From a virus (lineage: Duplodnaviria > Caudoviricetes): a stretch of 36,098 nt of DNA. Below are positions 1 through 34,803 of the stretch, piece after piece. The stretch lies in IMG/VR virus record IMGVR_UViG_3300020368_000002, positions 1-36,098 of that record; one strand, given 5' to 3'. Under the pieces are notes generated by a model, which saw only the letters and a program-made list of their open reading frames with translations, was not told the origin of the DNA and did not search any database. The position numbers and the translations under genes are program-made. How positions within the stretch are numbered: the first letter of the stretch is position 1; the number at the start of each line of letters is the position of its first letter.

Positions 1-115
1 ACGAACGCCTTCTTCTAGGAAATAAACTGAGAATCCCAACAACAGGCAAAACCCCTGCCTCGGGAATCGACGTATACTCATCTTCCCACAAACCCAAATC
101 AAAAAGGAGCATCTC

Positions 116-4710: not shown

Positions 4711-4718
4711 GAATGCTC

Positions 4719-14517: not shown

Positions 14518-14519
14518 GT

Positions 14520-15092: not shown

Positions 15093-15094
15093 GG

Positions 15095-18333: not shown

Positions 18334-18959
18334 TAGAAGATACTCCTGTTCATTGTGCGGCGACGACCGCGAATCTGAGCCATGTCTTCCGTGTCAAGAA
18401 CGCGAACGTCAGCGTTCCGCATTTCTTCGCGGAAGAAGTTGGATTGTGCAAGTTGCTCCTCGGCCACCAAGACCTGAGTCATGCGGTCCTCTTTGTTGTA
18501 CGACCGATCAAACCTACGAGCAGTCTTACTGACGACCCAGTTCCTAAATGACTCTGGTACGACTGGATCACTGCCTGAATTAGTGACTAGATCGACCTTG
18601 AAGGTGTACTGAACCTTGATGCTGCTGATCTGATCTGTGTTGTCATTAAGGTTGTACAAGATCGAGTCTCGACGAACCACGTCAATGTGAGCGTCTTCTG
18701 CATCAGAATCGATTTGGAAGATTTCACGGGAGCCTTCGATTGTGTCAATGATGATTCTGCCATCGCTGTTGGCAGTGAGCTGCACGTTGCGTTTGCTGTT
18801 GAAGTGCCAACCCCTGGCTTGCAGCTCTCGGTCGGATGCGTCGATCATTCGCTCGACCAAGCCGGCCAAACTGTTGGTGTTTGTGGCTAAGTTAGATACC
18901 GGGAGTTTCCCGATTCGCTCAAGTACATCGTTGACCAGGTCAAGTTTTGTTGAAGCCAT
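18333..18959 (-). CDS. Tail tubular protein A / adaptor (T7 gp11-like), copy 1
   Basis: TKLDLVNDVLERIGKLPVSNL, ELQARGWHFN, VPESFRNWVVSKTARRF. Confidence 0.85.
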   Translation of the reverse strand: MASTKLDLVNDVLERIGKLPVSNLATNTNSLAGLVERMIDASDRELQARGWHFNSKRNVQLTANSDGRIIIDTIEGSREIFQIDSDAEDAHIDVVRRDSILYNLNDNTDQISSIKVQYTFKVDLVTNSGSDPVVPESFRNWVVSKTARRFDRSYNKEDRMTQVLVAEEQLAQSNFFREEMRNADVRVLDTEDMAQIRGRRRTMNRSIF

Positions 18960-19759
18960 TATTTCATCACCGAGAATGCAACCACGATCGTGCCGGTGGC
19001 ATTTGCGTGGTTTGATATTTGGAAGGTAAATCCAGTTGTGGATTTGACGATTGATTCAACAGTTGCTCGAGGCAGGCCACTGGCAACAATCGAGTCCCGA
19101 GGAGAAATGAGAAGGGAGTAGTTTGTGTTTGCGGTAGCGGTAGCAAAGGTGACCGTGTATGTGCCGGCGTTGTGTGACACGTTGCTGATGCCGCCGGAGC
19201 CGTTGGCCAAGGTGGGAGTGCCGGCCAAAGTGCCACTGCTCACCGACTCCTCTACTTCTCCAAACGCATGGAATCCAAACCCAGGCGACAAGCCTTGTTG
19301 CTGGCTAATTGTTCCAGTAACTGTCAGGTCGCCATTAATGGTATGACTGTCTGAGTTTGAATTGCCGAAAGTGCAATTTCCATCTACAGCAAAATTTCCA
19401 CCAACCGCAGCGGATCCGAAAGTGATGTTAGTGTTGCTTCCAAAAACAATACTGGTAACACTTGAATCAACTGTAATTCCAGTTGGGCTGAGTGATATGG
19501 CATTAAGACCATTTGCCTTTTGAATTTCAAAGCCAGTGCTGGTGGGGTAGGTTGATCCATCTAGTGGACCAAGAGTTAACTTAGACCCAGTCAGAGTGAG
19601 TTTCCTGCCCAGCGCAGCACCACTGTTTCTTGTTTCAATAGTAAAGGCTTCATCTACACCTGGCTTGATATCGACGCTGCCAGCAAACTCAACCGCTTGG
19701 CTAAAGGTAACTTTGCCGGCAGTGTTTGATCTAATAGTGTTGACTCTTAATTCTGACAT
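18959..19759 (-). CDS. Short tail fibre-like protein 3
   Basis: MSELRVNTI start, G/S/T-rich beta shaft, C-terminal SHNAGTYTVTFATATANTNYSLL domain. Confidence 0.65.
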   Translation of the reverse strand: MSELRVNTIRSNTAGKVTFSQAVEFAGSVDIKPGVDEAFTIETRNSGAALGRKLTLTGSKLTLGPLDGSTYPTSTGFEIQKANGLNAISLSPTGITVDSSVTSIVFGSNTNITFGSAAVGGNFAVDGNCTFGNSNSDSHTINGDLTVTGTISQQQGLSPGFGFHAFGEVEESVSSGTLAGTPTLANGSGGISNVSHNAGTYTVTFATATANTNYSLLISPRDSIVASGLPRATVESIVKSTTGFTFQISNHANATGTIVVAFSVMK

Positions 19760-20505
19760 TATGCGAATACCATTCCGAAGAAATAGACGTTTGAGTTGCT
19801 GTTAAGATTTGGCCTTTCAATCGTAAATCTGCCTCTTTGCTTTAGCCCGCCCTCAAAGTCCGATCCAAACAATCGATCACTGTTATGCATGCAGCAATAC
19901 TCAAGCGGCCCAACTACTGTGCCTCTCAGTTTTCTGCTTCTGATAAGCACGGTGTAGTTAGTGTTTGGAAGCGGTTCGTCAAAAACCATTTGGAAATACT
20001 TGGGTGCAAAGGTGAATATTCCGTTTTGAGCTTGCGCTCCGAACGGGAAATAAGTCAGCCTGCCGTTGTCTTTCACACTTTCAGGGTCGTCACTTGCCTG
20101 AAAGCCATATCGGGGGTTGAGAGAGTCTGATACGCCACCGCCAAATTTAACTCCAACCAAGCCTTGTTGAATGACTTCATTACCATTCCATGCATAGCAA
20201 AAGTAAGCGTACGGTTGTTTGGCTATATCGCTGCTTCCCGAGATCAGAATGTTGTCGGTAGCGAAGTTGAAGCATTGCGCATTAGACATGTTCAAAGATG
20301 GTGCAGTCAACGTGTCGTCTGGACCATCACACACAAAACCCGCATCAGAATCCACATCGCCAGCACTTGCAGACATTGTGTTTGTCTCAAGATTAATGCA
20401 AGAAAGATTTGTGGTACTAAGGCTTGTCGTCGTGATCGGAGATCCAACGGTGCTTGCACCTGTGCCGTTTGCTGCCTTTATCGCGTTAACGCTAATTTGT
20501 GTCAT
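19759..20505 (-). CDS. Short tail fibre-like protein 2
   Basis: MTQISVNAI start; PYAYFCY...FDEPLPNTNYTVL C-terminal domain related to its neighbours. Confidence 0.6.
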   Translation of the reverse strand: MTQISVNAIKAANGTGASTVGSPITTTSLSTTNLSCINLETNTMSASAGDVDSDAGFVCDGPDDTLTAPSLNMSNAQCFNFATDNILISGSSDIAKQPYAYFCYAWNGNEVIQQGLVGVKFGGGVSDSLNPRYGFQASDDPESVKDNGRLTYFPFGAQAQNGIFTFAPKYFQMVFDEPLPNTNYTVLIRSRKLRGTVVGPLEYCCMHNSDRLFGSDFEGGLKQRGRFTIERPNLNSNSNVYFFGMVFA

Positions 20506-21095
20506 TAGGAAGCCTCAAAGACCACACAGTCAAATTCATCTTGGTTACCCAAACCCTTTGCTTCGAGAATGAAGCCACTGTTGATTTTAGTTATGAGCAA
20601 CACATAGTCAGTTGTCCCGGTTCCGCTGACGCTTGTAAACACCAGGTAGTTGTCATCGCCAGTAGGTCGAGGGGTTTCAAACAAGAAGGTGTATCGAAAA
20701 ATTCCCGAGGACTGTTGAACTGGCGCGGGCGGTGTAGAGTTGATGTTGTACCGAGCAAGAAAGGTCAGCGTATCATTCGATGCAACGTCCACTGAAAAGA
20801 AGGCATACGCCCCGGAACTGGAAAACGTCGTTCCGCCAACAGTTAGGTTAGTGACATCAAGGTTTGTGCAATTCACATTGGTGATGTTTGCAGTCGTCAA
20901 AGACGTAGTGCCACTGCTTTGCAGCGTGCTTGCCGTGACTCCCCCAGTTACTGTTACGTTGCCAGAAGCAGTCACGTTGCCGCTAACAGCAGCGTTGCCG
21001 TTGACCGTTGCGTTGCCTGTGACAAACATGCCAGTCGGGAAATTGACTGATGCTGTTGTCAGCGAGGTAATCGTGTCAGCCCTCAGCTCCGACAT
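20505..21095 (-). CDS. Short tail fibre-like protein 1
   Basis: MSELRADTI start, VxGN-type repeats (VTGNATVNGNAAVSGNVTASGNVTVTG), AYAFF...FETPRP...NYLV C-terminal domain. Confidence 0.65.
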   Translation of the reverse strand: MSELRADTITSLTTASVNFPTGMFVTGNATVNGNAAVSGNVTASGNVTVTGGVTASTLQSSGTTSLTTANITNVNCTNLDVTNLTVGGTTFSSSGAYAFFSVDVASNDTLTFLARYNINSTPPAPVQQSSGIFRYTFLFETPRPTGDDNYLVFTSVSGTGTTDYVLLITKINSGFILEAKGLGNQDEFDCVVFEAS

Positions 21096-21588
21096 CGTCG
21101 CCCTCTTCTTCGACGTTTAGAAACGCCTGGCCTTCACCGAAGCCCTGCTCCCAAGCAGCTTCGATTTGCTTCTTGGTTCCTGGCTTGCGAACGAAGATAC
21201 CGGCGAGCATTGATACACCGCCGACAATCACCGCACCACCAGGTACGGTTTGCATTGGCCCGTTCAGGGCGCTGAGTCCCATGTCGGTCAGGCTGTTGAT
21301 CAAGATCAACGTGGACCGACCCTCTTCGATCTCAGCCGCAAACCGCTCGGAGTTGAGCTTGATGTGGCTGGACCACTCGTTCCATGCGTAGCCGGCATCG
21401 GCCAGAGAGATCTGGCTTTCCACACCAATGGCCTTTTGCACTGCCGGCGGAGTCTTGATCTGGATCAGGTCATCTGCCTTGCATCCGCTCAGGGTGGCCA
21501 GCAGCATCACGACCGCCAGCACAATCACGATGGTGATGGTAGCGGTCTTGTTGTCCTTCACGAACTCTTTGATGTATTCCTTAATCAC
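21076..21588 (-). CDS. Membrane lipoprotein, candidate spanin
   Basis: Hydrophobic N-terminal segment ending in lipobox LSGC; second hydrophobic segment near the C-terminus followed by RKPGTKK. Confidence 0.55.
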   Translation of the reverse strand: MIKEYIKEFVKDNKTATITIVIVLAVVMLLATLSGCKADDLIQIKTPPAVQKAIGVESQISLADAGYAWNEWSSHIKLNSERFAAEIEEGRSTLILINSLTDMGLSALNGPMQTVPGGAVIVGGVSMLAGIFVRKPGTKKQIEAAWEQGFGEGQAFLNVEEEGDDVGAEG

Positions 21589-22079
21589 AGGAGGCCCACC
21601 GTTGCGAATCGTGCCGAGCCGCCAAAGGTCAGCCCAGCGTCACTCATCGTTAGCACCAGGTACTCAGCACCTTGGAGGTCGATAGTCAGCGTGGCGATTT
21701 CGTTGGTTCCGTTGCTGATTCGAGTACTGGAGTCTCCCTCTTCTTTGGCAAAGGTGTCTACAAAGTCTTCATTCTCAGTCAGCACGCCACTGGACACGCC
21801 AGTCTTTGTGCCGAAGGTGCAGAGGAACTTACCAATGAAGTGAGGAACGTATGTGGTGGTTGAACCAGAAGTAAGTGTGTTGACCCCAAAGGCGTACAAA
21901 CGGATCTGGTCGTTGTCTGCTGTACCAGTCGCAGCCACGCTTACCTTGGCCAGATTTGCGTAAGAGCATGAAAGGCCAGACTGGCTGTTGCTCACGCCGA
22001 CAGTTGTGGCATTAGTAAAGGTGCTGGGGTAAAGCACCGCTTTGGCTTTTTCAGTTAGAAGAAGTTGTGAAGTTGGCAT
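21585..22079 (-). CDS. Hypothetical protein, probably structural
   Basis: 164 aa, T/S/G-rich beta composition, lies in the structural operon. Confidence 0.6.
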   Translation of the reverse strand: MPTSQLLLTEKAKAVLYPSTFTNATTVGVSNSQSGLSCSYANLAKVSVAATGTADNDQIRLYAFGVNTLTSGSTTTYVPHFIGKFLCTFGTKTGVSSGVLTENEDFVDTFAKEEGDSSTRISNGTNEIATLTIDLQGAEYLVLTMSDAGLTFGGSARFATVGLL

Positions 22080-22278
22080 TTTGAATTTGGTCCTGCTTGT
22101 CTTCGATTCGGTTGATTCGTTCGATGACCATCTCCTGACGTGTCATGATGACACTCAGTTGTCGGTCATGATGTATGTACACCGCGAACAACGATCCAAG
22201 AATGGTCATGATTGATGCGAGGATGCCGCACCAATCTTTTGCGCTCAGTGAAACTGTACGGTCTGAATTGACGGTCAT
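22051..22278 (-). CDS. Small single-TM protein, holin-like
   Basis: Likely start MTVNSD at 22278; one TM helix (WCGILASIMTILGSLFAVYI) followed by a coiled-coil tail. Confidence 0.55.
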   Translation of the reverse strand: MTVNSDRTVSLSAKDWCGILASIMTILGSLFAVYIHHDRQLSVIMTRQEMVIERINRIEDKQDQIQNANFTTSSN

Positions 22279-22295
22279 GACGATACCCAAAGCCC

Positions 22296-22335
22296 CCACC
22301 ATCCTCTCGGCCCCGAAGGACCGAGAGGTGGCTGG
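22296..22335 (-). terminator. Stable UUCG hairpin after the capsid gene (attenuator/processing or T-phi-like site)
   Basis: Minus strand CCTCTCGGTCC-TTCG-GGGCCGAGAGG; no long U-tract follows. Confidence 0.55.
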
Positions 22336-22357
22336 AGGAGAAGAGAAAGGAGAAGGA

Positions 22358-23545
22358 TTACGATCGGGCCATGTTGATGACGCCGGAACAGAACGGAGCC
22401 AACACATCGAAGCCAACGTGCATTTGAGCCTTCATGAACTTCACGTTACGACGCTCGTCATCTTCAATGACAGTCCGCATACCGGAGGCTTGCACCATGC
22501 CGATAGCGGGCTGACCCATGCCTGCACCGCAAAGTGCAATAGCAGCAGGTCGCTTTTGGCCGGCCGCAGTAAGACCACACTCGAAGTCGTACTTGCTGAA
22601 TTCAGTGTCAATGAATTCGTAACGTCTGTTGGTCGTTCCAGTCCAATCACCAGGAAGGTTATTGGTCAAGATCAACTGGAAGCCTTCAAGCACGCCGATG
22701 GTTCGGGTGTTGAGGGTTCCTGCAACAGATCCGTCGTTGAAGTCACGATTGAAGATGTCTTGTTCGTGACGCAAGATTGAACGGATGTAAGGAGGAATGA
22801 ACAAGAATCGACCTTCTTGCGGAACGTTGTCTTCGTCAAACTGACGAGCCAAAGTGGCAACGTCGTTTCTGAACGCAGTCGAACCACCAGAACTGTCGGC
22901 AAAGAACGAGGCAATACCACTACCGCCGGAAACCGTATTTTCAACAACTTGACCGCCCGGCATCACACCAGCAATAGCAGCGGTGGTAGCAGCCTTGAGG
23001 GCAATCGCCGCAATCTTGCGGTCGAGGTCAGTTGCAAGTGAACGACCCAGCTTCTGGCTGAACGGGGTCAGCACGTCAAAGTGGGTGAGGTCCAGGTCGG
23101 CAAATGGCACGTCAATCGCAGCCACAAGAACGTCGTCCACGCGGACAGTCTTCTCGGACATCTTGATTTTCTTACCAGTGATGAAGTCGCCTGGGTTGTG
23201 GTAGCCAGCCTTGAGGCCACCTTCAGAGGCAACGTCGTCTGCGTCAGTGAAGGGGCCGTCAGTGGTGTCTGCATTGTCTTCAAGCGCGTTGAAGAGATCA
23301 ATGTCATCACCGATGACTGGGAACTGAGCGACGTGTCCGCCGTCAAGTTGACGCTGTGCGATGAACTCGCCCATGCGATCGTAGAAGACGGAGTTGGTGT
23401 AGAACTGCTCAAGCGTTGTGCCTGAGAAAATCTTCAGTGCAAGCGCACGGCTGTCAGCACCGAATTTATCGGAGAGGGTGCGAGTAGCGCCGAATGGGAC
23501 TGCGGTTGGTCCTGCGCCTGCACCTGAAGGGAGATCGAGAGTCAT
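22358..23545 (-). CDS. Major capsid protein (T7 gp10-like)
   Basis: ALALKIFSG, AQFPVIG, EKTVRVDDVLV, LGRSLA..D, FDEDNVPQEGRF motifs; AAAAAGGAAAG RBS. Confidence 0.95.
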   Translation of the reverse strand: MTLDLPSGAGAGPTAVPFGATRTLSDKFGADSRALALKIFSGTTLEQFYTNSVFYDRMGEFIAQRQLDGGHVAQFPVIGDDIDLFNALEDNADTTDGPFTDADDVASEGGLKAGYHNPGDFITGKKIKMSEKTVRVDDVLVAAIDVPFADLDLTHFDVLTPFSQKLGRSLATDLDRKIAAIALKAATTAAIAGVMPGGQVVENTVSGGSGIASFFADSSGGSTAFRNDVATLARQFDEDNVPQEGRFLFIPPYIRSILRHEQDIFNRDFNDGSVAGTLNTRTIGVLEGFQLILTNNLPGDWTGTTNRRYEFIDTEFSKYDFECGLTAAGQKRPAAIALCGAGMGQPAIGMVQASGMRTVIEDDERRNVKFMKAQMHVGFDVLAPFCSGVINMARS

Positions 23546-23590
23546 AATGACTTTCCTTTTTGTAAGAGGTGTAAGAGTAGAGGTAACAGT

Positions 23591-23648
23591 CCAAGGTATC
23601 CGTACGCTTCGGGGCGCTTACGCGGTATCCCTAGCCTTACGGGCTTGA
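23591..23648 (-). promoter_or_regulatory. Structured leader upstream of the capsid gene
   Basis: Nested stems CAAG/CTTG, CCGTA/TACGG, GCT/AGC, GGG/CCC, CGC-GTAA-GCG with two GGATACC bulges. Confidence 0.6.
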
Positions 23649-23657
23649 GTTGATTTG

Positions 23658-24038
23658 TTAGAGAGTGCCTTCGTTCACATCCCAGTCGGCATCGTCATCT
23701 TCAGTAGCCGGCGAATCAGGTTGATCCGTTTCCGTTGCTTCATCAGATTGTTGAGCCGCCAGTTTGGACTCCAGATCCTTGATCTTCTCAGTGAGATCTG
23801 CATTGTCCTTGGTGAGGGTCTCTTCTTTGGTTCCCTGCGGCACGAAGGATTCAAGTGCAAGTCGGAATGAATCTTCTTCTGTTGTACCTTTTGCACTGTG
23901 TACCGCCTTTTCAGTTTTGACATCAACCAGCTCGCATACAACGCCACCGGCGTTGGATAGGTGTGCGAACCTAGGTCTCAAGTTGTGCTTCATTTCAAGA
24001 ACGGCAGCACGCTTTATAAGTCTTGGGTCTCGTCTCAT
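23658..24038 (-). CDS. Hypothetical protein with C-terminal coiled coil
   Basis: 126 aa, AGGAG RBS, ATGA-coupled to the scaffold gene. Confidence 0.7.
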   Translation of the reverse strand: MRRDPRLIKRAAVLEMKHNLRPRFAHLSNAGGVVCELVDVKTEKAVHSAKGTTEEDSFRLALESFVPQGTKEETLTKDNADLTEKIKDLESKLAAQQSDEATETDQPDSPATEDDDADWDVNEGTL

Positions 24039-24811
24039 CGATCAACTCCTCTGATGATGTGTTCGGGTGTGTTTGAAAGCCTCTTCAGATATGCGGCATT
24101 GAAGCCATTCTGTCTTGCCTCTGCCGCTGCTTTGACGTACTCATCGACTGTTTCAAATCCAGACATGGTGTTGGGCATTGGCGTGCCTTGCACCAGTTCC
24201 TGGGTCATGCCACTGCCGCTGGCCTGCTTCCAATCAAACATCAACTCTTTGACCGCCGACTCGTACTGACGTGGGTCGGCAAGCCTTTGGTTCAGCGAAT
24301 CAACTTTGTCGGCAGGCAGATTCTGGCCAGCCCAGTTGAATAGGTTCTCCAACTGCTCTTCGCCGCCGGCAATGGTTGACGCACGGCTCTTTGCTTGCTG
24401 GACTTCGTAGCCAGTGTTCTGCGAGATGGCTGCTTGGCCACGCAGGAACTGGTCGACAATCTCTCTGTTGAATCCAACGCCAGACAACTTCTGGTACTGC
24501 TCGTCGGTGAGCTTTCCGTCGTTGACCCAGTTGGTTCCAATCTCCTCTCCGCTGACTCCTGCCTGCTGCATCAAAGCATCCAGCCCAAGTTGGCTGTTGT
24601 CTGGGCGTTCGCCCATCTTCTTCTGCAACTCCAGGTATGACTTCTCGAGATCCTCTGGCGAGTTGAACTTGCCAGCGTATTGCTTTTGATGCTCGACCTC
24701 GACGGACCCAGTGGCTGGCATAGCAGCCTCTTCGACCTGGGCCTCTGCTTTCGGCGCACCGCCTGGCGACTGGATCGAAAGATCCGTGCCTTGAACTTCT
24801 CCTTCAGACAT
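24035..24811 (-). CDS. Capsid scaffolding protein (T7 gp9-like)
   Basis: YAGKFNSPEDLEKSYLELQKKMG, GKLTDEQYQKL, IAGGEEQ...WAGQNL motifs; lies between portal and capsid. Confidence 0.9.
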   Translation of the reverse strand: MSEGEVQGTDLSIQSPGGAPKAEAQVEEAAMPATGSVEVEHQKQYAGKFNSPEDLEKSYLELQKKMGERPDNSQLGLDALMQQAGVSGEEIGTNWVNDGKLTDEQYQKLSGVGFNREIVDQFLRGQAAISQNTGYEVQQAKSRASTIAGGEEQLENLFNWAGQNLPADKVDSLNQRLADPRQYESAVKELMFDWKQASGSGMTQELVQGTPMPNTMSGFETVDEYVKAAAEARQNGFNAAYLKRLSNTPEHIIRGVDR

Positions 24812-26399
24812 TTGGATTCTCCATTTGGCCCATCGCCGCTTCGACGAGGGCTTGACCTCCAGACTGTGCCACCTGTTGGCCGGCAGTCTGCATGATTTGT
24901 TGTTGCTGTTGCTGGGCAGTCTCCTGCTGCATTACCTCTTCGGACTTGACCAGACCAGGTTCGTAGACCCCAGAGTGCCTGACCAAGATGTCGAGCAAGA
25001 GGCTGCGGTCGAATCGCTGCATCATGTCCGGCCCCATCTGTGCGATGGTCTGCAACAGTTGCAGCAGCTTCTGCTGGTCGCCCTCTCGAGACAGGGCCGA
25101 GATGCCGGTCACAGCCTCGACCTCGACCGAGTCTGCCGGCAGGGCTGGCATGACCCCGTCCCGCTCCAGGAGGTGCATCAGACGCTCGACCAGTGGGATC
25201 TGAAGGGCATCTGCTATCGGAGCGTAGACGCCGCCCAGAGCGCCTTCTAGTTCCATTGCGACCCTCTCAACGTGGAGCCGGGAGGCACGTTCATATGTCG
25301 GCAGTTGCTCGGCTTCCATCATCATGACCTTGGACAGGTCACGCGACAGAGATTCCCGCACGTTCTGGACCACGCCGAAGTCGCCGGCACGGTCGGTGCG
25401 GAGGATGCCCACATCGGTGACCTGCCCTCCCTGAACCCTCGCTTGGAATACGGAGCCGGTTGGCAACGCCAGATCCTGGGGTCGGACCTGACTCGAGTAA
25501 TCCAAGGCGAAGAGGTGCTTGGAGCTGAGGGCGGCAAAGTCAAGAAGCCGCTCGGTCAACTCGTTGATGGCACGCACGTCGCCCAGATTCTCCTCAATGA
25601 TTCCTCGACCGTAGTGTCCAGTCGGGGGCAGGGAATACGGGATAGCAAAGTACGGTGAGACCTTCTCCTCGGAGGTCACGATCGTCACATCTTTGACCTG
25701 CTGCTCCACCACCCAGCGTTTGGACATCGGGTTCCACTCGCACTTGGTGTAGAGATCTTGCATCCGGTCGTAGGCCGGAGTGTTCATCTCGGTCTCCAGA
25801 TCCAAGCCAATCATTTCGATCTGCTCGGGAGACAGAGAGAGTGAGTCCACCTGCTCACGGGTGATCATGTACATCACATCACCCGAGGTGCTACGCCGCA
25901 CGACATAGTTGTCCCGGCGGTGGATTCGGATCTGGTACTCATCCGTCATCTGGATCAGCACGTCCCCGGTCACCAGAAGCTGCGAGATAGCAGACCGCAT
26001 CCGAGACCTGAAGCCAGCACGGCGGGCGTTGGTCCCACCATCGCTGTCGTCCTTCTCCAACTTGGCAAGCATGATCATTTCATGGATTCTCAACTTGTCT
26101 TCAAATGATTGGAGCAGGCTGGGGTCCACCTCTGGATCGAACTTAAACTTGGTCGCTGGCTTCAGCCGGAAGAATGGCTGGCCAGTTGGGAACAAAGCCA
26201 AGAGGAGGCGACCCTCCAGGTTGGTGATGCCACGGCTTGCAAGGGCGCTGAAAGCCTGGGGCAAAGTTTCACCATCGTTCCAGCCCTCGGGGGGGAGGAT
26301 GTGAGGCTTGGTCAGTTCGGCACACAAGCGTGCCTTGTCCAGAGAATCACCGCGTTCGCTGTCATCTCGCTCGAACGCAGCACGGATTGATGGAAGCAT
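24804..26399 (-). CDS. Portal / head-tail connector (T7 gp8-like)
   Basis: RGITNLEGRLLLALFP..PFFRL, LLVTGD, YGRGIIEENLGD, ELEGALGGVY, VTGISALSR. Confidence 0.95.
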   Translation of the reverse strand: MLPSIRAAFERDDSERGDSLDKARLCAELTKPHILPPEGWNDGETLPQAFSALASRGITNLEGRLLLALFPTGQPFFRLKPATKFKFDPEVDPSLLQSFEDKLRIHEMIMLAKLEKDDSDGGTNARRAGFRSRMRSAISQLLVTGDVLIQMTDEYQIRIHRRDNYVVRRSTSGDVMYMITREQVDSLSLSPEQIEMIGLDLETEMNTPAYDRMQDLYTKCEWNPMSKRWVVEQQVKDVTIVTSEEKVSPYFAIPYSLPPTGHYGRGIIEENLGDVRAINELTERLLDFAALSSKHLFALDYSSQVRPQDLALPTGSVFQARVQGGQVTDVGILRTDRAGDFGVVQNVRESLSRDLSKVMMMEAEQLPTYERASRLHVERVAMELEGALGGVYAPIADALQIPLVERLMHLLERDGVMPALPADSVEVEAVTGISALSREGDQQKLLQLLQTIAQMGPDMMQRFDRSLLLDILVRHSGVYEPGLVKSEEVMQQETAQQQQQQIMQTAGQQVAQSGGQALVEAAMGQMENPNV

Positions 26400-26580: not shown

Positions 26581-26779
26581 TGCTTTCCCTTTCTAAGAGT
26601 CTTAAGAGTTCGTCGACAACCGACCTCCTGCCGGCGTCAAATATCAGATGATTCGGTTGGTTCAGACAGCCCGGAGTCTGCACAATCGGAGGCTTTACAA
26701 CCTGGTCCAGCTCCCGTATCAGTTGATCCACCGTCAGTGGTAGCCTTGTCGGCAACGAGGATGTTCCAGACATATCCAT
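26567..26779 (-). CDS. Conserved small pre-portal protein
   Basis: GGAG RBS; LIRELD...AGRRSVVDELL pattern typical of this position in T7-like phages. Confidence 0.65.
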   Translation of the reverse strand: MDMSGTSSLPTRLPLTVDQLIRELDQVVKPPIVQTPGCLNQPNHLIFDAGRRSVVDELLRLLERESNGRT

Positions 26780-27317
26780 TCTCCAAAAGCCAAGTGGCCA
26801 GTACTGGGCCAGCCCAAACGTGGGACGGAACTTCGATCCCAGCCCCCTGCTTCATGGCCACATAAATGTTTGTGAGGCAAGTCTTTCCCTGCCAAGCACC
26901 CCAAGTAAACAGGGTTCCGTAGTATCGCACGTTGCTCAGAATAAACTCGAGCCACATAGGACGGCGCTTGAGATTCAACTCGTCGAAAGACCAGCAGCGG
27001 CGTACCGGGATATCAACCCACCCAATGATGTTGGGGTACGCCTTCGCGAACCGCTGCTCATCCATGACGAGTGTCGTCCTGAACTGGTGGTCGACCACCT
27101 GCCCATCGCATGCCATGACGACGTGCCGCATATCACTGTGAAATACCTTGGCAATCACAGAGGATCCAATGCAGCCAAGCAAGACACCTGGTCGTCGCAT
27201 CGTCCAGCGCCAGCCCATGCGGCGAATGAAGTCTCCTAAACCCCAGCCTTTAACGAAGTAAAGCCTGAGCGGTTTTGTTCCATTATCCGGGGAACACTCA
27301 AGAGAAGAAGTAGTCAC
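26637..27317 (-). CDS. Permuted papain-like NlpC/P60 (YiiX/YaeF-type) protein
   Basis: His-before-Cys order: IAKVFHSDMRHVVM ... KTCLTNIYVAMKQGAGI...GPVLATWL; AGGAG upstream. Confidence 0.55.
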   Translation of the reverse strand: MTTSSLECSPDNGTKPLRLYFVKGWGLGDFIRRMGWRWTMRRPGVLLGCIGSSVIAKVFHSDMRHVVMACDGQVVDHQFRTTLVMDEQRFAKAYPNIIGWVDIPVRRCWSFDELNLKRRPMWLEFILSNVRYYGTLFTWGAWQGKTCLTNIYVAMKQGAGIEVPSHVWAGPVLATWLLENGYVWNILVADKATTDGGSTDTGAGPGCKASDCADSGLSEPTESSDI

Positions 27318-29709
27318 TGTTCATAATCTCCTGTAAATCGAGTTTGCCTTTCGGCGGTGGGGGTTCAATATCCGCGAGAGGGTAGTTGAATTTCCAGAAC
27401 TTGTAGATCTCATCAATCTGATCTTGGTCATGCAGCTCGATGAATTGTTCCTTCGTGATTTCAACCACCCGGTCCATGTTCTCAGCGTGGGCAAGGTACG
27501 CATCGTGGATGCCGGCAAAGTCAATCTCCTCATCAAAGCAGATGATTGCAACCATCCCTTCGTGAGCGCCATCCCAAGAGTGGACTATGTTTGGCGGGCC
27601 ACCCTGACGCTGCTTGCCCTTGGACACCGGCAGGTCTTCACGCCTATGCCCCAGGATCACACGCTGCATTACGGTCTTTACCTCGACCCGCTTGGTCTGG
27701 CGGTATGGCTGGACAGCCACCACACCCATGGGAGTCTTCCACTTCAGGCCAACGCTGGGGTACACCTTGCAGATTGACTTGGTCGATTCCTCGATCCAAC
27801 GCATCAACTTCTGCGGGCCAGTGAACACGTCGCCAAGAGAGTCCAAGGTTACGTTCGCCAAGTACATCGAGCAGGGCTTGAGTCGTTCGTTCGGGAACTC
27901 AGCATCCTTCAGCTTCTGCTTCACCTGGTCCTTCGCACCAATGCGAGTGACGTTGTAGTTGGAAGTCATGACCGGCTGCTTGATCACGCTGCGGGTGAGG
28001 TACGGCAACACCTCGTCCGACATCGGGTTGGAGTCAGCCTCGATATTCAACTGGGCCACTCGCCTCACTTCCTCGTATGCATCTTGAGGTGAGTCGCTTG
28101 GGATCAGGTTCACCCACTTGCCACCTTCGGCATCCCGAGCTGCGGCACAGTAGTGCTGAGTCCCGTTGCAACTTCCGTCAATGTGGACCGCAAGACGTGA
28201 GCCATACCTGTCATCGCAAAGCGCCTTGCATGCGGCAAGAAACTGGAACGGCTTGTCTGCCTGGCTCCACCACTCCACCATCGACATGGGATCTTTGGCC
28301 GTCATCTTGATTTGAGATGCCATGTCTTTCACATACTGGATGCGACCATCGAAGTCTGCCTTGTCGTAGCCCCACATGTTTGCGGCGTGGATCAGTAGCC
28401 AACGGCGACCGCTGTCTGTCAGCTCAACTTGCTTTGCAAAGTGAAGCAGCCCACGGGATGAGTCGTTGCCATGGTGATTCAGCCAAACCGGGATCGGGTA
28501 GTACCTGAATCGAAAGCACATTTGATGCGGAAAGTAGAACGCATCCTTCTCAAGCATCCGCTGTGCCATCGATATCTTCTGCACGAACTCAATCCGCTGG
28601 CCTCTGATGCTGGCGTTTTTGCCATGGATATCGTGAGCCTCCTGCTTCCATCGCTTCAGGCTTTCTTCATTGGTCTCGATATCGATGGGCTTCGGCGGCA
28701 TCGGAACCAGGTCGGCACGCGGTATGCCAGCAGACCCTCCGCCTTGGTCCCAGAGTTTGCTCATCACATCCAGCACGAAGTCATTAACCTTCCAAGCTGT
28801 GGAGTTGATTGCGTTCAGGGACTGGTACAGCACCTCGGTGTTGCTCTCCTCCAATGCAGTCATCTGGTCGGAGGTCGGCTTGGAGATGAGAGGGGTCTTG
28901 ACATTGACATACCCCCCACGCAACTCATCGCACCACTCGTATGGTGGGACCAGCATGGGCATGAACCTTGGCCGCAAGTGCTGACGGAACATGTGTCCAT
29001 CCTCGATGGCCCTGAAGGTTGCGTCACTCAAACGGATGCAGCCTTTCTGCTTTTTGTCCCGCCACTGCCGCTCGTGAATGAATGACTTCTGCATGACGAC
29101 CTCGTCGTCCACCTCTGCCGGCAAGGTGCAGATCTCAACGGCACAGTTGATCAGGATGGAGCCAGTGGTCACGCAGGCTTTGCGATTCCATAGGTGGTCA
29201 TCCAGAGAGTTCTTCGCCCAGTGGTTCACGCGGGCTGGCGTGATCCGTCTGAACCTGGAGTCGAGCGCCTCCATGTCCCGGCGGTCGTGGTCCCTGATCA
29301 TGTCGTGATGGATCTCTGCGATGACTGCGTTGCCAACGGCATACGCCATCTTCATGAACAGATCGCCAGCAGGCTCTTGGACACAGCGACCGAGCATGGT
29401 GTTCAGTGTGATCACAGCCAAGCGGTCGACATCTAAAGAACAAACGACCGGACCTCCAATGGCCCGGCCGTTGCCTGCGTTCCCTGCAAGTATTTCATCT
29501 TGCTCATGCTTGATTCGGTTGACCAGCCATGGGAACCAACTGACGATCAACCGCTCGACTGGCTTCAAGCTGCCAGCTTCTCCTCGAGCCACCGCTTCAT
29601 CGCATAACTTGCGATACCTTTGGACTCCCATTTGGATAGCGTCAATCTCAAGTGATATCTGCTCTCCAAGTTTGGAGTCGACCAGTGCGTCACCTACTCG
29701 GAGCGGCAT
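27298..29709 (-). CDS. Single-subunit DNA-dependent RNA polymerase (T7/mitochondrial family)
   Basis: Motif A DGSCNGTQH, motif B RSVIKQPVMTSNY, PNIVHSWD, motif C IHDAY, C-terminal YFFS; GGAGGTG RBS. Confidence 0.97.
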   Translation of the reverse strand: MPLRVGDALVDSKLGEQISLEIDAIQMGVQRYRKLCDEAVARGEAGSLKPVERLIVSWFPWLVNRIKHEQDEILAGNAGNGRAIGGPVVCSLDVDRLAVITLNTMLGRCVQEPAGDLFMKMAYAVGNAVIAEIHHDMIRDHDRRDMEALDSRFRRITPARVNHWAKNSLDDHLWNRKACVTTGSILINCAVEICTLPAEVDDEVVMQKSFIHERQWRDKKQKGCIRLSDATFRAIEDGHMFRQHLRPRFMPMLVPPYEWCDELRGGYVNVKTPLISKPTSDQMTALEESNTEVLYQSLNAINSTAWKVNDFVLDVMSKLWDQGGGSAGIPRADLVPMPPKPIDIETNEESLKRWKQEAHDIHGKNASIRGQRIEFVQKISMAQRMLEKDAFYFPHQMCFRFRYYPIPVWLNHHGNDSSRGLLHFAKQVELTDSGRRWLLIHAANMWGYDKADFDGRIQYVKDMASQIKMTAKDPMSMVEWWSQADKPFQFLAACKALCDDRYGSRLAVHIDGSCNGTQHYCAAARDAEGGKWVNLIPSDSPQDAYEEVRRVAQLNIEADSNPMSDEVLPYLTRSVIKQPVMTSNYNVTRIGAKDQVKQKLKDAEFPNERLKPCSMYLANVTLDSLGDVFTGPQKLMRWIEESTKSICKVYPSVGLKWKTPMGVVAVQPYRQTKRVEVKTVMQRVILGHRREDLPVSKGKQRQGGPPNIVHSWDGAHEGMVAIICFDEEIDFAGIHDAYLAHAENMDRVVEITKEQFIELHDQDQIDEIYKFWKFNYPLADIEPPPPKGKLDLQEIMNSDYFFS

Positions 29710-30244
29710 TGATCACCTCCACTTCTTTGAAGCCTGAACCCTGGCGCTTAACGATCTTGAGTTTGCCTCGACCGTACGCAGCCCAGAGTTTCTTGTCCTT
29801 TTTGAACTTGGCTGTCTCGACTCCCTTCACATCAACGTACCACCCCATGCCAATGGACGGGTGAGGTATTACGAAGAAGTCTGGAACGTACACGTTCTCA
29901 GGTACGCCAAGCCAGACACGGGGCTGGCAAATGTAGTCCATGATCGAGCCAGTCTTGACAGAGTCCTCGAGCATCTTGCAGTACTCCATCTCTGCTTTGG
30001 AGCCGAAGGTGCGACCGAGGTACTGCCTCTCGTTCGCTGGCGATACTTTGTACTTACTCATCCTTGAGTCCTCCTTGGGACGGAACAGTGTGCCGGACTT
30101 CTTGTATGGCACTATGACATATCCGCTCGGTGGTGTGTTGCTTCTCATGCAAAGCAGTGCGCCGTCCGGGGCGACTCCACACCAAGATTTCTTACCGCAG
30201 ACTACGCATGGATTCCTCGCGTCAACCCGCTTCCACCCTTTCAT
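29690..30244 (-). CDS. Zn-finger plus PD-(D/E)XK nuclease (DUF1064-like)
   Basis: N-terminal PCVVCGKKSWC...LCMR; C-terminal FGSKAE...QP...YVPDF...DVKG; second RBS and in-frame ATG at 30061. Confidence 0.75.
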   Translation of the reverse strand: MKGWKRVDARNPCVVCGKKSWCGVAPDGALLCMRSNTPPSGYVIVPYKKSGTLFRPKEDSRMSKYKVSPANERQYLGRTFGSKAEMEYCKMLEDSVKTGSIMDYICQPRVWLGVPENVYVPDFFVIPHPSIGMGWYVDVKGVETAKFKKDKKLWAAYGRGKLKIVKRQGSGFKEVEVINAAPSR

Positions 30245-30256
30245 CAATCACCTCCA

Positions 30257-30442
30257 TCAGTCATCGAGCCGCACAGCCCGGCCACAGTTTTTGCAGACCA
30301 TCAGACCTGGTTGAATCTCTTCGTCCATGTGAAGGCACTCTCTTTGGTGCTGGATCTTTTCGTTTGCTTCAGTAATGTCACCAACCAAGTATGGATCGGT
30401 TTCAGGTTCGGTTGCTTTGGGTGGCTTACTAAAATCAGACAC
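30257..30442 (-). CDS. Small Zn-ribbon-like hypothetical protein
   Basis: GTG start with GGAGG RBS; CLH...CKNC. Confidence 0.55.
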   Translation of the reverse strand: MSDFSKPPKATEPETDPYLVGDITEANEKIQHQRECLHMDEEIQPGLMVCKNCGRAVRLDD

Positions 30443-32072
30443 TTTGCTTTCCTCCGTTGATGTAGTAGTCAATCAGCTCACTGGCTTTCGCCTTGGTAAT
30501 CTCGGTGTCTTGAACACCGTACGCTTTCAGAATCCTGCACTGTGCGATGGTGCAGAGTCCGTGCTTCTGCCGGCGGAAGATCTCCCTCTGCAACTTGGTG
30601 GCATCTGACTTACGCATAAAGCGTGCGTCAACTTTCCACTTGCTTAGGAAGTCACACTGACGATCGGTCGCCAGCGCCTCGTCCTCGGATGGCAGAGTCG
30701 GTGCATCCATGTCAAGCACAGCAAACGGATCAACCACGGTGGAGCCGAAGTCAACCCTTGCTCGGACCACCGCCCGCCGCTCCTCACGTTCCCGCTCCAA
30801 CTGACGTGCGTCCTCCTCCAGGGATTCGTCTGCTTCTTCGAGGCAATCCTCGAGGTCGACAGCCTCATCCTTGGTGGCGGCGATACGCTTGGCACGGTTC
30901 AACCTTGGCCCAGAGTCAGGCTCGATCAGGTCGAAGGCGTTGGCCAGCCGGTGCTTTGAGCAGTTGCCAACGAAGTCAAGCACCAAACATTCTGGCTTGT
31001 CAGAGCTGGCGATCGCGGCCCGTCTCTCCCCGTCAGATCCACCCGCCGACGACAGCACGTCAGGGAGAGGACGGAGACCGCGACCAACCATTTGGGCATA
31101 CAGCGCCCTGCTCTTTGTTGGACGTGCGAGTACCACCACTTCACACTCGGGGCAGTCCCATCCCTCGGTCGCAATCATGCAGTTGCAGAGGTATCGGATC
31201 TTGCCTTCCGAGAATTGTTGGAACGAGATCTGTCTCTCGTCCGCTGGAGTCAAGCCGGATACGGCAACGGCACTGTCAGGTTCAGCGCGGTTGAGTATCT
31301 CTGCCAGGCGTGTGGCCTGATCGACTGACACGCAGAAGATCACCGCCCGCTTGCCGGCAGCAAGTTCCCGTGTTGGTTCAGCCACCGCATGCAGGTGCTT
31401 CTCCTGCCCCATGATTCGGGAGACCTCCAGCTTGTTGAGGTCACCGGCAGTGCTTCGCACCTGGTCCAAATCAATCGACTTCACCTCGACCACCCGGTAC
31501 TTGATCGGGACAAGGTAGCCGTCATCCATCGCCTGCTTGAGCGTGTACTCATGGGAGACGGTGTCGAAGATCTCGAGGAGGCTCCGCTTGTCCATGCGGT
31601 CAGGGGTAGCCGTAACCCCGAGCAACTTGTGGCTGGAGTTCTTGAACATGTGCGCCAGGATTTTGCGGTACGACTTGGCCGCAGCATGGTGGGCTTCGTC
31701 AATGACGGTCAGGCTCCAGTGGTCTGGGTTCGTGACCACATGCTCAAGCCTGCTGCCGCTTGTGATGCTGGCGACTGATGCGACCACAACCCGTGGCCGG
31801 GATAACAATCCCTGATCCAACGTGGTCTTGGTGTTCATCTCAATGCCAACATCGATGCCGGCGTCGGTCATCGTTTGCCAAAGCTGCATCACCAACTCCT
31901 CGCGGTGAGCCAGCACCAGCACGTTGCCCGCCCTCGCCTTGTCGACGATGGAAGTGATGATTACGGTCTTGCCTGTGCCGGTCGGACTGATCAGCAATTG
32001 GGATGGGTGGCGACGGAACCCCGTCACCACCGCATCCACTTGCTCCGATTGAATGGGTCGGAGTTCACGCAT
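30435..32072 (-). CDS. Superfamily 2 DEAH-box helicase (Irc3/ResIII-like)
   Basis: LRPIQ, PTGTGKT, DEAHH, TATP, TEGWD, ARPTKS..LYAQMVGRGLR, VLDFVGN. Confidence 0.93.
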   Translation of the reverse strand: MRELRPIQSEQVDAVVTGFRRHPSQLLISPTGTGKTVIITSIVDKARAGNVLVLAHREELVMQLWQTMTDAGIDVGIEMNTKTTLDQGLLSRPRVVVASVASITSGSRLEHVVTNPDHWSLTVIDEAHHAAAKSYRKILAHMFKNSSHKLLGVTATPDRMDKRSLLEIFDTVSHEYTLKQAMDDGYLVPIKYRVVEVKSIDLDQVRSTAGDLNKLEVSRIMGQEKHLHAVAEPTRELAAGKRAVIFCVSVDQATRLAEILNRAEPDSAVAVSGLTPADERQISFQQFSEGKIRYLCNCMIATEGWDCPECEVVVLARPTKSRALYAQMVGRGLRPLPDVLSSAGGSDGERRAAIASSDKPECLVLDFVGNCSKHRLANAFDLIEPDSGPRLNRAKRIAATKDEAVDLEDCLEEADESLEEDARQLEREREERRAVVRARVDFGSTVVDPFAVLDMDAPTLPSEDEALATDRQCDFLSKWKVDARFMRKSDATKLQREIFRRQKHGLCTIAQCRILKAYGVQDTEITKAKASELIDYYINGGKQSV

Positions 32073-33022
32073 CAGAACGGCAGATCATCTTGCGAGGCGA
32101 CCGGCTCGATCACCTCTGGTTCAACGGCCTTGCCAGATTCGGGCAGGATAACTTCGTGACCCTCAAGGTCACTGCCCCACTGGGTCTCGGTGTACTCGAG
32201 GCGGATTGGCTTGCCAGCCTCGTAGTCATTCATCACCTTCACTGCGACCCACCGCTTCATGGTTCCCATCTTGGAACCGTCAGCAAGGTGGACGAAGTGC
32301 TTCGTGTATGTCTTGCCTGCCTTGCTTTGCAGCTCGACATCAAGTTCGACTTGGACAATGTTGTGACTGCCGTCTTCGTTGACCGCATCGCCACCCCCTG
32401 CCCCCGACGCCAAGGGTGGACGAGGCGTCGGGGTTCTGGGAGGTGACTCGGAGGTACGGTTCCCGCCGGAGTGGGGAGCCTCCGGCGGGGGAGATGCAGG
32501 CAATGACTCCTGCGTAGCCTTGTGTTCTTCAAGTGATACACCAAGTTCGGTCTCACCTTCAGACTCAACATACACGGGTGCAGCACCCAGTGCATCAGGG
32601 CAATGCTCACGATAGCCTGCACTGATCGCTCTTGCAAACAACATTGCCTTGGGAAATTTTTTCCAGTTGGCCCCACCCAGACCGGCCCTGCCTGCATCCT
32701 GCATCGAGAACTCTGTGACCCCGATTTCTTCGCCGGTCCCAAGGTTCACAAAGGTGATGCGGCAATACTCGGTCGTGGTCTCAGCACGATAATCGTACTT
32801 GCCCGACCGCTTGATCGCAGCAGCCATAAGGTTCGCAGCCAAGACGACCTTGCCATTGATGACGTGAAGGCCAGCCATGGCGTCGTACGGAGTGAGGCCC
32901 AAGCCTTGCCCGACCGCCAACTTGGTGGCACATTGGGCAGCGTTGCGGGCGTCAGGGAACATGCCCGACTGGGCGAAGATAGCACCCAACTGAACTGGGT
33001 CATACGGTTGAATCTGGTTCAT
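32072..33022 (-). CDS. RecT-like single-strand annealing protein
   Basis: Start MNQIQ at 33022 (GGAGG RBS, ATGA overlap); GLGLTP..AM..LHVINGK, AGL...NWKKFPKAMLFARA...PDALG; acidic DDLPF tail. Confidence 0.8.
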   Translation of the reverse strand: MNQIQPYDPVQLGAIFAQSGMFPDARNAAQCATKLAVGQGLGLTPYDAMAGLHVINGKVVLAANLMAAAIKRSGKYDYRAETTTEYCRITFVNLGTGEEIGVTEFSMQDAGRAGLGGANWKKFPKAMLFARAISAGYREHCPDALGAAPVYVESEGETELGVSLEEHKATQESLPASPPPEAPHSGGNRTSESPPRTPTPRPPLASGAGGGDAVNEDGSHNIVQVELDVELQSKAGKTYTKHFVHLADGSKMGTMKRWVAVKVMNDYEAGKPIRLEYTETQWGSDLEGHEVILPESGKAVEPEVIEPVASQDDLPF

Positions 33023-33465
33023 TTCAAACCTCCTATGGTTGTCTTGTACTCTGCTTGTCCCCAACTTGCAAGCGGGGAATTGTCAATTGCACGGATAACT
33101 TTGCGAGCGTACTCCAGTGATGACTTACGCCACGGACCTCGAGGACCACCCACCCAAGTGCGTGCCTTGTCCATGTTGGTGGGCTTCCTACCCAGGCGTT
33201 TCTCTGTGCAGTACCGGGCCAGATACGCTCGCTGAATCTTGAGTGAGTACTCCAGGTGCTGGCAGTCCTCGTACTTGCCACCGATGCTGGGGTCGAATTC
33301 CAGCGCGTCGTGGTGGCACGCTCTTGACACCTGAAGAGGCCCGAGGCTGCGGCCTTGGTCTCCCCAGATCATTCCCTCTCTGCGGCTGGTCTCAACGAAC
33401 CACACCGCGTCTTCAAACTTGGTCATGTCGACCGTTGCAAAAGCTGCAATCAATAAAGAAATCAT
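33019..33465 (-). CDS. Lysozyme-like muramidase (i-type/destabilase-like)
   Basis: Hydrophobic N-terminus; VETS...GD.G.SLGPLQV...DA...YEDC...YLARY...ART..GGPRG...Y..KV. Confidence 0.75.
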   Translation of the reverse strand: MISLLIAAFATVDMTKFEDAVWFVETSRREGMIWGDQGRSLGPLQVSRACHHDALEFDPSIGGKYEDCQHLEYSLKIQRAYLARYCTEKRLGRKPTNMDKARTWVGGPRGPWRKSSLEYARKVIRAIDNSPLASWGQAEYKTTIGGLK

Positions 33466-34505
33466 GAGTAGTGTTCCTCCGATACGGATAAGTAATGCTT
33501 CTGAGCAACGCGCTCAGAGTGTCCAAGCCACACGTTGCAGACGTGCGACGGATACGTTTGATGCCAGACCACATCGCGGGTGCGGCGTAGATCTGCGAAC
33601 GTGAACGGTTCTACATCGACCACTTCCATGGCGTCCTTTACCACTCGGTATGGATTCGATGGCTTTTTTCCCATGGTCTGGAGGTACTTGCCATGCTGCT
33701 TCCACCAGAGGCGAAGGGTCGGCTCGATGCGGATGACCCGCTGCTTCTGTTTGGTGGTCTCGTACTCGCCACGCGGGTACAGGATGTACCGATCCTCGTC
33801 CAACTCTTGGTGTCCGTGAATCAGAATACCGGCGGTGTGTCGGCACTCGCCCGTACGCATGCCGGTCCAGTACCCAAGTTGGACCATGAGCGCCACGCCA
33901 GCACGGGTCTTGAATCCCTCCCACCCAGCGGCGGTCTTGGGCTTCTGCTCCAGCAGATACTGCGTCACCTTGGTCACGTCCTCAATGGTGACGTGCCGCT
34001 CCCGCTGGGCTGGCGTTGGCTCCGCGCCGGATATGTGTGCGAATGGATTCATGAGAACCTCGCCTTCGTTGAGGGCGTGGGTGAACACGGTCTTCGCGAT
34101 GCGGACCCACTTGGCCACGGTGGCTGGACCCACAAGCGTGCGCCAGGAGGCTACGACATCGTTGGCTCGGGCAGGCGTGAGCGCCATGACCAGTTCGTGC
34201 GATCGGTACGCATTCTCGGTCAGAAGCCTGACCACCTGATGGTGCATGGCAATCGTTTTGGGCATCAACTCCGCAGTTCGATTGACCAAGTATCGCTCGC
34301 TCCACATGACCCAAGGGGACCGAGCTGAACCCTGTTGTCCTCGATTTTCGTTGAGGCTGATTTGCAATTCGAGTCTGCGGGCTTTCGCAGTCCTGCGGTT
34401 GACCTTGGATTTGTGGCCGATGCCACGCCGGATACGCTTCCCGGTGGGGTCTGTCCAAGACAATTGCCAGTAATCCCCATTGGAATTTAGTTGTACTTCA
34501 ATCAT
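33462..34505 (-). CDS. int: Tyrosine recombinase / integrase
   Basis: Likely start MIEVQ at 34505; TGMRTGE, TKQKQR, FADLRRT, WLGHS, AQKHY catalytic motifs; N-terminal arm-binding-like WQLSWTDPTGKRIR. Confidence 0.88.
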   Translation of the reverse strand: MIEVQLNSNGDYWQLSWTDPTGKRIRRGIGHKSKVNRRTAKARRLELQISLNENRGQQGSARSPWVMWSERYLVNRTAELMPKTIAMHHQVVRLLTENAYRSHELVMALTPARANDVVASWRTLVGPATVAKWVRIAKTVFTHALNEGEVLMNPFAHISGAEPTPAQRERHVTIEDVTKVTQYLLEQKPKTAAGWEGFKTRAGVALMVQLGYWTGMRTGECRHTAGILIHGHQELDEDRYILYPRGEYETTKQKQRVIRIEPTLRLWWKQHGKYLQTMGKKPSNPYRVVKDAMEVVDVEPFTFADLRRTRDVVWHQTYPSHVCNVWLGHSERVAQKHYLSVSEEHYS

Positions 34506-34533
34506 TGGTTGGTTCCTGATATGCTTGCTGCTG

Positions 34534-34596
34534 ATCTCCGTGGTAGGGATCCGACACCCCCGCTCAATGCGGGGGTGTCTTCTTCCCATCGGAGAT
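34534..34596. promoter_or_regulatory. Long imperfect inverted repeat upstream of the integrase
   Basis: Perfect 11-bp stem GACACCCCCGC-TCAAT-GCGGGGGTGTC (34553-34579) inside outer arms ATCTCCG-TGG / CCATCGGAGAT. Confidence 0.65.
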
Positions 34597-34803
34597 TTAC
34601 GCTGGTCGTGGGTACACCCGACGAACCACTTCACCATCCTCATCCATGATCAAGATGGAATACATTTCCCCGAACTTTTTGTTCCGGGTGCGGACAATGT
34701 TGTAGGTCCAATCCGAGTCAAACTTGTCGAGCATCTTGACAGCCTCCTCGCAAAGGTCGCGATTGGTGGTCCAACCGTCAGGGATAAGTTGGTCAATGTT
34801 CAT
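34597..34803 (-). CDS. Early hypothetical protein
   Basis: 68 aa, GGAGGA RBS. Confidence 0.7.
   Translation of the reverse strand: MNIDQLIPDGWTTNRDLCEEAVKMLDKFDSDWTYNIVRTRNKKFGEMYSILIMDEDGEVVRRVYPRPA

Follow-up and report, generated by a model that had tools for sequence, protein, structure and literature searches.

T7-type RNA polymerases of a phage clade, a likely sister group of the nucleus-encoded mitochondrial enzymes

The virus record IMGVR_UViG_3300020368_000002, a linear record of 36,098 nt with an estimated completeness of 92% that was analyzed over its whole length (the window), carries a gene for a single-subunit RNA polymerase (RNAP) at positions 27298..29709. We consider it quite probable that this is an intact T7-type RNAP that transcribes the virion genes on its own in a probably temperate podophage, and that it comes from a clade that is sister to the nucleus-encoded mitochondrial RNAPs. 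Mitochondrial RNAP has been traced to T-odd phages in general (PMC10386132, PMC10877234, 10.1101/2022.04.05.487141, PMC10201439, PMC6963530, PMC9169541 and PMC4176174), the source being given only as 'T-odd' or T7-like phages in PMC9169541, PMC10877234 and PMC10201439. A phage origin is already accepted; what is added here is a defined, likely sister clade, of which a literature search with thin coverage of subscription journals found no description.

The minus-strand frame that runs from 29709 down to 27298 encodes 803 residues with zero internal stops, and all of the sequence blocks quoted in an earlier note, made by inspection of this DNA, were found in the translation. The protein matched the Pfam profiles RNA_pol (PF00940; 366 bits, cut-off 22) and RPOL_N (115 bits) as well as PHROG 414 (E 8e-180), and the catalytic residues D511, K577, Y585 and H735-D736 are kept. 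Comparison with three gene copies of 97-98% identity, two of which are near-duplicates, gave dN/dS values of 0.044, 0.068 and 0.044, whereas a fourth copy differs by five silent changes only. Judged by its sequence, the gene is intact and under purifying selection, and its product belongs with the T7-type enzymes rather than being a mitochondrial RNAP itself. The following features were located in it:

27298..29709, minus strand: single-subunit RNAP, 803 residues, without an N-terminal extension (translation, Pfam, PHROG and model).
28177..28179, minus strand: motif A catalytic Asp511 (D in 528/528 sequences).
27952..27993, minus strand: motif B (R573, K577, Y585, N586), with YN in place of YG (residue counts in the alignment).
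27502..27507, minus strand: motif C, His735-Asp736 (alignment).
28468..28479, minus strand: NHHG block, with an H412 common to eukaryotes.
27595..27723, minus strand: specificity-loop segment of 43 residues (663-705) with QPY (comparison of segment lengths).
29029..29082, minus strand: residues 210-227, modelled as two strands and predicted to be the intercalating beta-hairpin.

Residues 210-227, which we take to be the intercalating hairpin from the anatomy of the T7 enzyme, align without gaps to the matching stretch of yeast Rpo41.

Against solved structures the RNAP scored 364 bits with yeast Rpo41, 294 with human POLRMT and 240 with T7 RNAP. The best of 2750 matching cultured-phage records was 29.8% identical and none exceeded 30% over the full length; the ESM Atlas returned nothing beyond generic clusters of phage RNAPs. 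Of 7994 representative hits, the best 150 were mostly proteins of 790-860 residues with longer ones interspersed, and two of the ten longer hits checked carry eukaryotic names (Cyanidiococcus and Fabomonas). To the sample were added 120 hits of a red-algal query and named phage and prophage references. Viral loci were gathered with an alignment of the clade and with a eukaryote alignment (the scans covered 17/64 and 15/64 parts and 80 loci were taken from each), linear-plasmid enzymes were found with a plasmid seed and 52 of 121 were retained on coverage, and bacterial genomes were scanned with query-specific patterns only. Rows shorter than 640 residues and identical rows were removed and the alignment was given one refinement round. 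The resulting 528 sequences fall into eukaryotes (139), the query's clade (180), other phages (157) and linear plasmids (52); the clade is a large lineage of uncultured phages. Animal, land-plant, N4 and giant-virus enzymes were left out of the trees, red algae are over-represented and some clade rows are redundant. Median identity is 34% between clade and eukaryotes, 29% between other phages and eukaryotes, and 28% between clade and other phages; within groups it is 37% for the clade and 43% for the sampled eukaryotes.

The clade was sister to the nucleus-encoded mitochondrial RNAPs in all six trees, which were built with FastTree, the LG model, a posterior mean site frequency (PMSF) mixture model or recoded data. 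FastTree placed 179 phage-sized enzymes (support 0.989) beside 139 eukaryotic enzymes (1.0) with a joint support of 0.994 from 418 rows, and the joint support from 528 rows was 0.978. With 68 taxa the pair received 100 from IQ-TREE under LG and, under PMSF LG+C20+G4 with 767 columns, a Shimodaira-Hasegawa-like approximate likelihood ratio of 100 and 1000/1000 ultrafast bootstrap trees on a branch of 0.64 (eukaryotes 100/100, clade 92.9/98). LG with 117 taxa gave 100 for the pair and 95.4 for the clade, four-state recoding gave 99.5/100 and 99.2/100, respectively, and addition of six divergent enzymes from archaeal bins left the grouping unchanged (100). T7, SP6-like, phiKMV, pelagiphage, cyanophage and plasmid enzymes all lie outside the pair. 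When 60 new full-length viral RNAPs and references (non-plasmid) were added after searches with eukaryote queries, 58 fell outside the clade, two inside and none nearer to the eukaryotes. Approximately unbiased (AU) tests rejected two alternative placements of the eukaryotes, one beside the T7/Rhizobium/pelagiphage group (difference in log-likelihood, delta lnL, 242) and one beside the three phage enzymes that come next in proximity (delta lnL 108). The window's RNAP falls beside the eukaryote clade and not inside it, and nesting among cyanophage, pelagiphage or phiKMV RNAPs, which would have spoken against the earlier note, was not found. That note had assigned the enzyme to a lineage near the phage ancestor of mitochondrial RNAP. 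The kinship is borne out, but the special position belongs to the whole deep clade, within which the query is derived and carries several changes of its own, and the clade as placed by the trees is a sister lineage and not an ancestor. Among the sampled sequences we hold with good confidence that the clade would be the closest relative of the mitochondrial RNAPs, and it is likely their closest known viral relative.

The signature motifs agree with this position. Counted in eukaryotes, clade, other phages and linear plasmids in that order, NHxG was present in 79/99/0/0, KQ.VMT in 139/77/5/8, QPY in 132/112/5/2, PPN in 115/54/8/2 and HD[SA][FYW][WL].H in 93/92/0/0, and a histidine at the position of query H412 was found in 132/139 eukaryotes, 159/180 clade members and 8/157 other phages. 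The specificity-loop segment has a median length of 43 residues in eukaryotes and clade (interquartile range 43-43), 45 in other phages and plasmids and 47 in T7, which confirms the short loop reported earlier: at 43 residues it equals that of eukaryotes and is two below other phages and four below T7. Diagnostic columns in which two groups agree against the third numbered 19 for eukaryotes plus clade, three for eukaryotes plus other phages and five for clade plus other phages; the groups were taken from a tree of the same alignment and these counts are descriptive, not independent of the tree. As counted in the alignment, the signatures exceed chance and the key ones are rare in phages outside the clade, as the earlier note required. 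Its claim of an organellar pattern at many blocks survives for NHxG, KQ.VMT, QPY, PPN and HD[SA], but not for four blocks that proved not to be diagnostic, since other phages have them: PM..P..W (54/157), VNL.P...P.D.Y (65/157), the YFF end (85/157) and W.TP.G (107/157). Moreover, the query departs from the eukaryotic residues at C398 (D in 139/139), F401 (G), T517 (L), P579 (T), N586 (G) and L739 (W), and its form of the HD[SA] block is HDAYL.H, without the eukaryotic W.

Compared with the mitochondrial and plastid enzymes (Rpo41, POLRMT and RpoT), the query shares sister-group position, the 43-residue loop segment, the NH, KQ.VMT, QPY and PPN blocks and the best scores among Protein Data Bank entries. 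It differs in being phage-encoded, about 800 residues long and aligned from residue 20, without an N-terminal extension, pentatricopeptide repeats or targeting peptide, in having no mtTFB gene nearby, in a palm insert of 23 rather than 30 residues, and at C398, F401, P579, N586 and L739. Clade members retain phage states, Q413 in 85/180 and P579 in 121/180. These retained states, together with the greater diversity of the clade relative to the eukaryote sample, fit a sister lineage and not a captured eukaryotic gene. Capture of an early eukaryotic mitochondrial RNAP gene by an ancestral phage would be compatible with trees that are unrooted at the base of the pair and with the eukaryotic identity of the query's best solved relatives. 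We nevertheless regard such a reverse transfer as extremely improbable, given that both groups are monophyletic, that the outer groups are all phages or mobile elements, and that the clade lacks the N-terminal extension, has phage states at five columns and is the more diverse group (37% versus 43% median identity).

Several observations weigh against the reading of the clade as sister of the mitochondrial enzymes and of its RNAP as a self-sufficient polymerase. Plasmid placements beside eukaryotes or clade were rejected weakly by the AU test (delta 53-72, p 0.02-0.04), which used 5000 replicates, fewer than advised. The constrained trees were given a fast search only, whereas the free tree search gained about 35 units after the first round. 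The grouping was already present in the guide tree used to derive the PMSF profiles, and the tree search had a shortened stop rule. The query is unlike all eukaryotes at C398, F401, T517 and N586, and its motif B has YN as in plasmid enzymes. A T7-style repeated promoter was not seen among the 20 largest repeat families. Finally, a closer lineage may lie outside the sampled sequences because the viral scans covered 17 and 15 of 64 parts, only the best 150 of 7994 representatives were taken and the bacterial patterns were query-specific.

The plasmid results bear on a scenario in which the nuclear gene came via a mitochondrial linear plasmid, the plasmids being sister to the nuclear enzymes or derived from inside the clade. 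YN in motif B (N586) occurs in 48/52 plasmid enzymes and 43/180 clade members, against 2/157 other phages and 0/139 eukaryotes, and the AU p values for the plasmid groupings were 0.034, 0.040 and 0.022, from fast-searched trees. However, such groupings appeared in 0/1000 bootstrap trees, nor did the window's RNAP group with plasmid enzymes in any of the 1000, and plasmid enzymes have a 45-residue loop and zero NHxG or HDS.W blocks. Apart from YN, they differ from the query in sequence (about 21% identity), in forming their own long-branch clade outside the pair and in context, the query lying among phage genes rather than next to a protein-primed PolB. We judge this route very unlikely. Somewhat better founded, although still unlikely, is the view that the grouping is real in the sample but that an unsampled phage or prophage lineage is nearer to the eukaryotes, or that shared slow evolution inflates the signal. 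The searches were capped, the clade was first collected by likeness to the query and the divergence is deep (27-37% identity). On the other side, searches with eukaryote queries gave nothing nearer, the result was stable under mixture and recoded models and is accompanied by a shared loop length and 19 columns, and the tip branches of the clade are longer than those of eukaryotes, so it is not a short-branch group.

Structure prediction did not help to choose between T7-like and mitochondrial affinity. The RNAP model (predicted local distance difference test 92) has the right-hand fold with hairpin and specificity loop and a template modelling (TM) score of 0.86 to T7 RNAP (1msw), with a root mean square deviation of 3.6 to this T7 elongation shape and of 14-18 to mitochondrial structures. 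For a eukaryote control, modelled from an alignment of equal depth, the values were 4.0 and 14-22, respectively. As the control was also modelled in the T7 elongation shape, although the N-terminal domain of mitochondrial RNAPs is one that does not refold on elongation, we rejected structure as a discriminator, and the comparison proposed in the earlier note did not separate the two.

The annotated genes of the window all lie on the minus strand, in the order integrase, RecT, SF2 helicase, resolvase, RNAP, portal, scaffold, capsid, tail tubes, nozzle, internal virion proteins and terminase. The surroundings of the RNAP gene are:

29690..34643, minus strand: early module of integrase, lysozyme-like open reading frame (ORF), RecT-like annealase, SF2 helicase and Holliday junction resolvase (family matches, except for the lysozyme-like ORF, which was assigned by eye and had no family hit).
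26637..27317, minus strand: ORF directly 3' of the RNAP gene, between RNAP and portal, kept in 26 clade loci.
1201..26399, minus strand: T7-like virion module of portal, scaffold, major capsid, two tail tube proteins, nozzle, internal virion proteins and small and large terminase (family matches).

The virus is a T7-like podophage, probably a temperate one. Tara source labels on near-identical RNAP proteins indicate a marine habitat. Its own single-subunit RNAP and T7-like virion genes on one strand make it a T7-like phage in the Autographiviridae sense, and it shares with T7 and T7-like RNAPs (PF00940, PHROG 414) the fold and catalytic residues, and with phiKMV-type phages the RNAP gene directly before the virion genes. 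It is set apart from them by at most 30% identity to the 2750 cultured records, by its separate clade and shorter loop, and by integrase, RecT and SF2 helicase in place of T7-type DNA polymerase, primase-helicase and single-stranded DNA-binding protein (SSB). These three last proteins form the replisome typical of T7-like phages; no DNA polymerase or primase-helicase was found in the early module at 29690..34643.

Of the relatives, 69 loci with a length of 9 kb or more gave clade scores; five of them scored better as eukaryotic and 64 were used (many are redundant, and only 30 have at least 5 kb upstream). Portal was found in 59, scaffold in 56, SF2 helicase in 29 and integrase in 16; the RNAP gene stands just before the virion genes, whose order in the window is kept in relatives. 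T7-type DNA polymerase, primase-helicase and SSB were found in 0/64 clade loci versus 81, 91 and 92 of 101 other phage loci. Likewise, the T7-type replisome was lacking in 16 whole clade records: PolA was over the cut-off in none (one weak match of 17.6 bits) and DnaB-type genes in none (four of these records being at least 90% complete), whereas 4/4 control phages were positive. The mtTFB/KsgA family (PF00398) was also found in 0/16 clade records. The upstream modules vary and include RecE/RecT, Erf, Sak4, DnaC-like proteins, methyltransferases and, in one case, a primase-helicase that resembles neither T7 gp4 nor Twinkle. This enzyme belongs to clade member L190 (5476-8140), where a PolX-thumb-like ORF and a CHC2/DnaB-type primase-helicase precede the RNAP gene; since it matched none of the solved chains and lacks the N-terminal domain of T7 gp4, it was rejected as a Twinkle-like helicase.

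The lack of PolA and DnaB-type genes in the 16 records raises an added role, in which the RNAP would also make replication primers in phages without a T7-type primase. Mitochondrial RNAP does such priming, as described in PMC6963530. However, the RNAP gene comes after the replication arm, a host primase could serve, two relatives (L190 and L220) have a primase or primase-helicase of another type and no origin was found. We consider a priming role improbable.

In phiKMV-type phages the host RNAP reads the early arm. By this analogy and from the gene order, the host polymerase would transcribe the early arm of the present phage, including the RNAP gene. The RNAP would then read phage promoters by use of its own specificity loop and hairpin and would by itself transcribe the downstream virion genes, while host proteins would copy the phage DNA, as no PolA or DnaB-type gene was found. 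Transcription of the late genes likely proceeds without a cofactor, and the virion module at 1201..26399 is likely the target. T7 uses the hairpin and specificity loop for promoter binding and opening (PMC4176174). A sigma-70 scan gave two sites versus 5.7 expected. One RNA run matched 6% of words, which was not taken as evidence of expression.

A candidate control element lies about 60 nt before the capsid gene:

23595..23646, minus strand: tandem GCCC-N(8-14)-GGAYAMC element in the leader of the capsid gene, its copies flanking a hairpin (conserved in clade leaders).

The core was found in 34/43 clade capsid leaders, with at least two copies in 19/43, and in 0/8 other phage leaders, over a background of 0.09 per 250 nt; further examples are L193:11877-11959 and L003:16078-16173. 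Phage jiawei (L172) has a GACAAC/GACAATC variant. Rfam gave no match for the element, and a consensus fold computed for the capsid leaders revealed hardly any shared structure (-0.04), although single linkers fold as hairpins. The element is likely either an RNA regulatory element or a twin promoter, and the variable, often GNRA-capped hairpin suggests the former more than the latter.

Given a sister clade, a course of events can be proposed. An ancient member of the lineage leading to the clade would have given its RNAP gene to a eukaryote that predated the last eukaryotic common ancestor, and in the recipient the N-terminal extension and the dependence on mtTFB would have arisen. Tentatively, and at somewhat less than an even chance, we suggest that the clade is the extant sister lineage of the viral donor, that these phages without a T7 replisome probably live on Planctomycetota, and that the polymerase entered eukaryotes alone, in an event distinct from the arrival of Twinkle and Pol gamma, rather than within a prophage that the alphaproteobacterial endosymbiont carried. 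Since present gene content and hosts may differ from those of the donor, separate acquisition from a non-alphaproteobacterial phage stays hypothetical. A defined sister clade opens three questions to testing: through which changes the requirement for mtTFB arose, whether RNAP, Twinkle and Pol gamma were acquired together, and from which bacterial hosts early eukaryotes received phage genes. The clade enzymes may also serve as small, likely cofactor-free comparators for POLRMT biochemistry.

The suggestion of a planctomycete host comes from 30 clusters that were checked (20 from the clade), two of which hold a protein labelled Planctomycetota bacterium, on metagenome-bin contigs of 39.9 and 6.8 kb. 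These are bin labels, and bins can gather phage contigs, as illustrated by an archaeal bin (L100/G020, contigs C49 and C33) that holds a contig identical to this phage plus a second, ordinary T7-like phage contig. An archaeal host was rejected and the case treated as misbinning: the 34-kb phage contig has no shown host flanks, a second phage contig is present and no comparably scoring enzyme was found in other genomes among 201 of the order to which G020 belongs.

In that order, 13/201 genomes had a T7-type RNAP match over the cut-off, one being the phage-holding bin. Archaeal genomes contain T7-type RNAP genes of about 1300 codons (L288:6937-10944, L291:3758-7861, L292, L289 and L293, in G123, G124, G074, G186 and G194). 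L288 adjoins PCNA, Nop and fibrillarin, L291 occurs with HMG-box matches, and under LG these enzymes fall together with those of plasmids on long branches (99.8). Phage L172 (OR464703.1), for which Mycolicibacterium smegmatis is the recorded host, has a T7-like genome; among cultured phages it matched a eukaryote query best, yet it lies outside the clade. An 11.4-kb record labelled as a Peribacillus plasmid (L175, NZ_CP110135.1) encodes, when read with code 4, an RNAP and a PolB-like ORF whose named relatives are fungal mitochondrial plasmid enzymes, and is probably a mislabelled mitochondrial linear plasmid.

Within the window, the ORF at 26637..27317 showed a weak likeness to the permuted papain-like YaeF/YiiX fold (TM about 0.5, below the naming threshold of the tool). 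The ORF at 2-667 (minus strand), without Pfam, PHROGs or NCBIfam family matches, has by eye a PEP-CTERM-like tail (PEAG, hydrophobic run and basic end). Two tail tube A-like genes, both PF17212, stand in tandem at 17686-18959 (minus strand), and an internal virion protein of 2557 residues is encoded at 4985-12658 (minus strand), its size being similar in several relatives.

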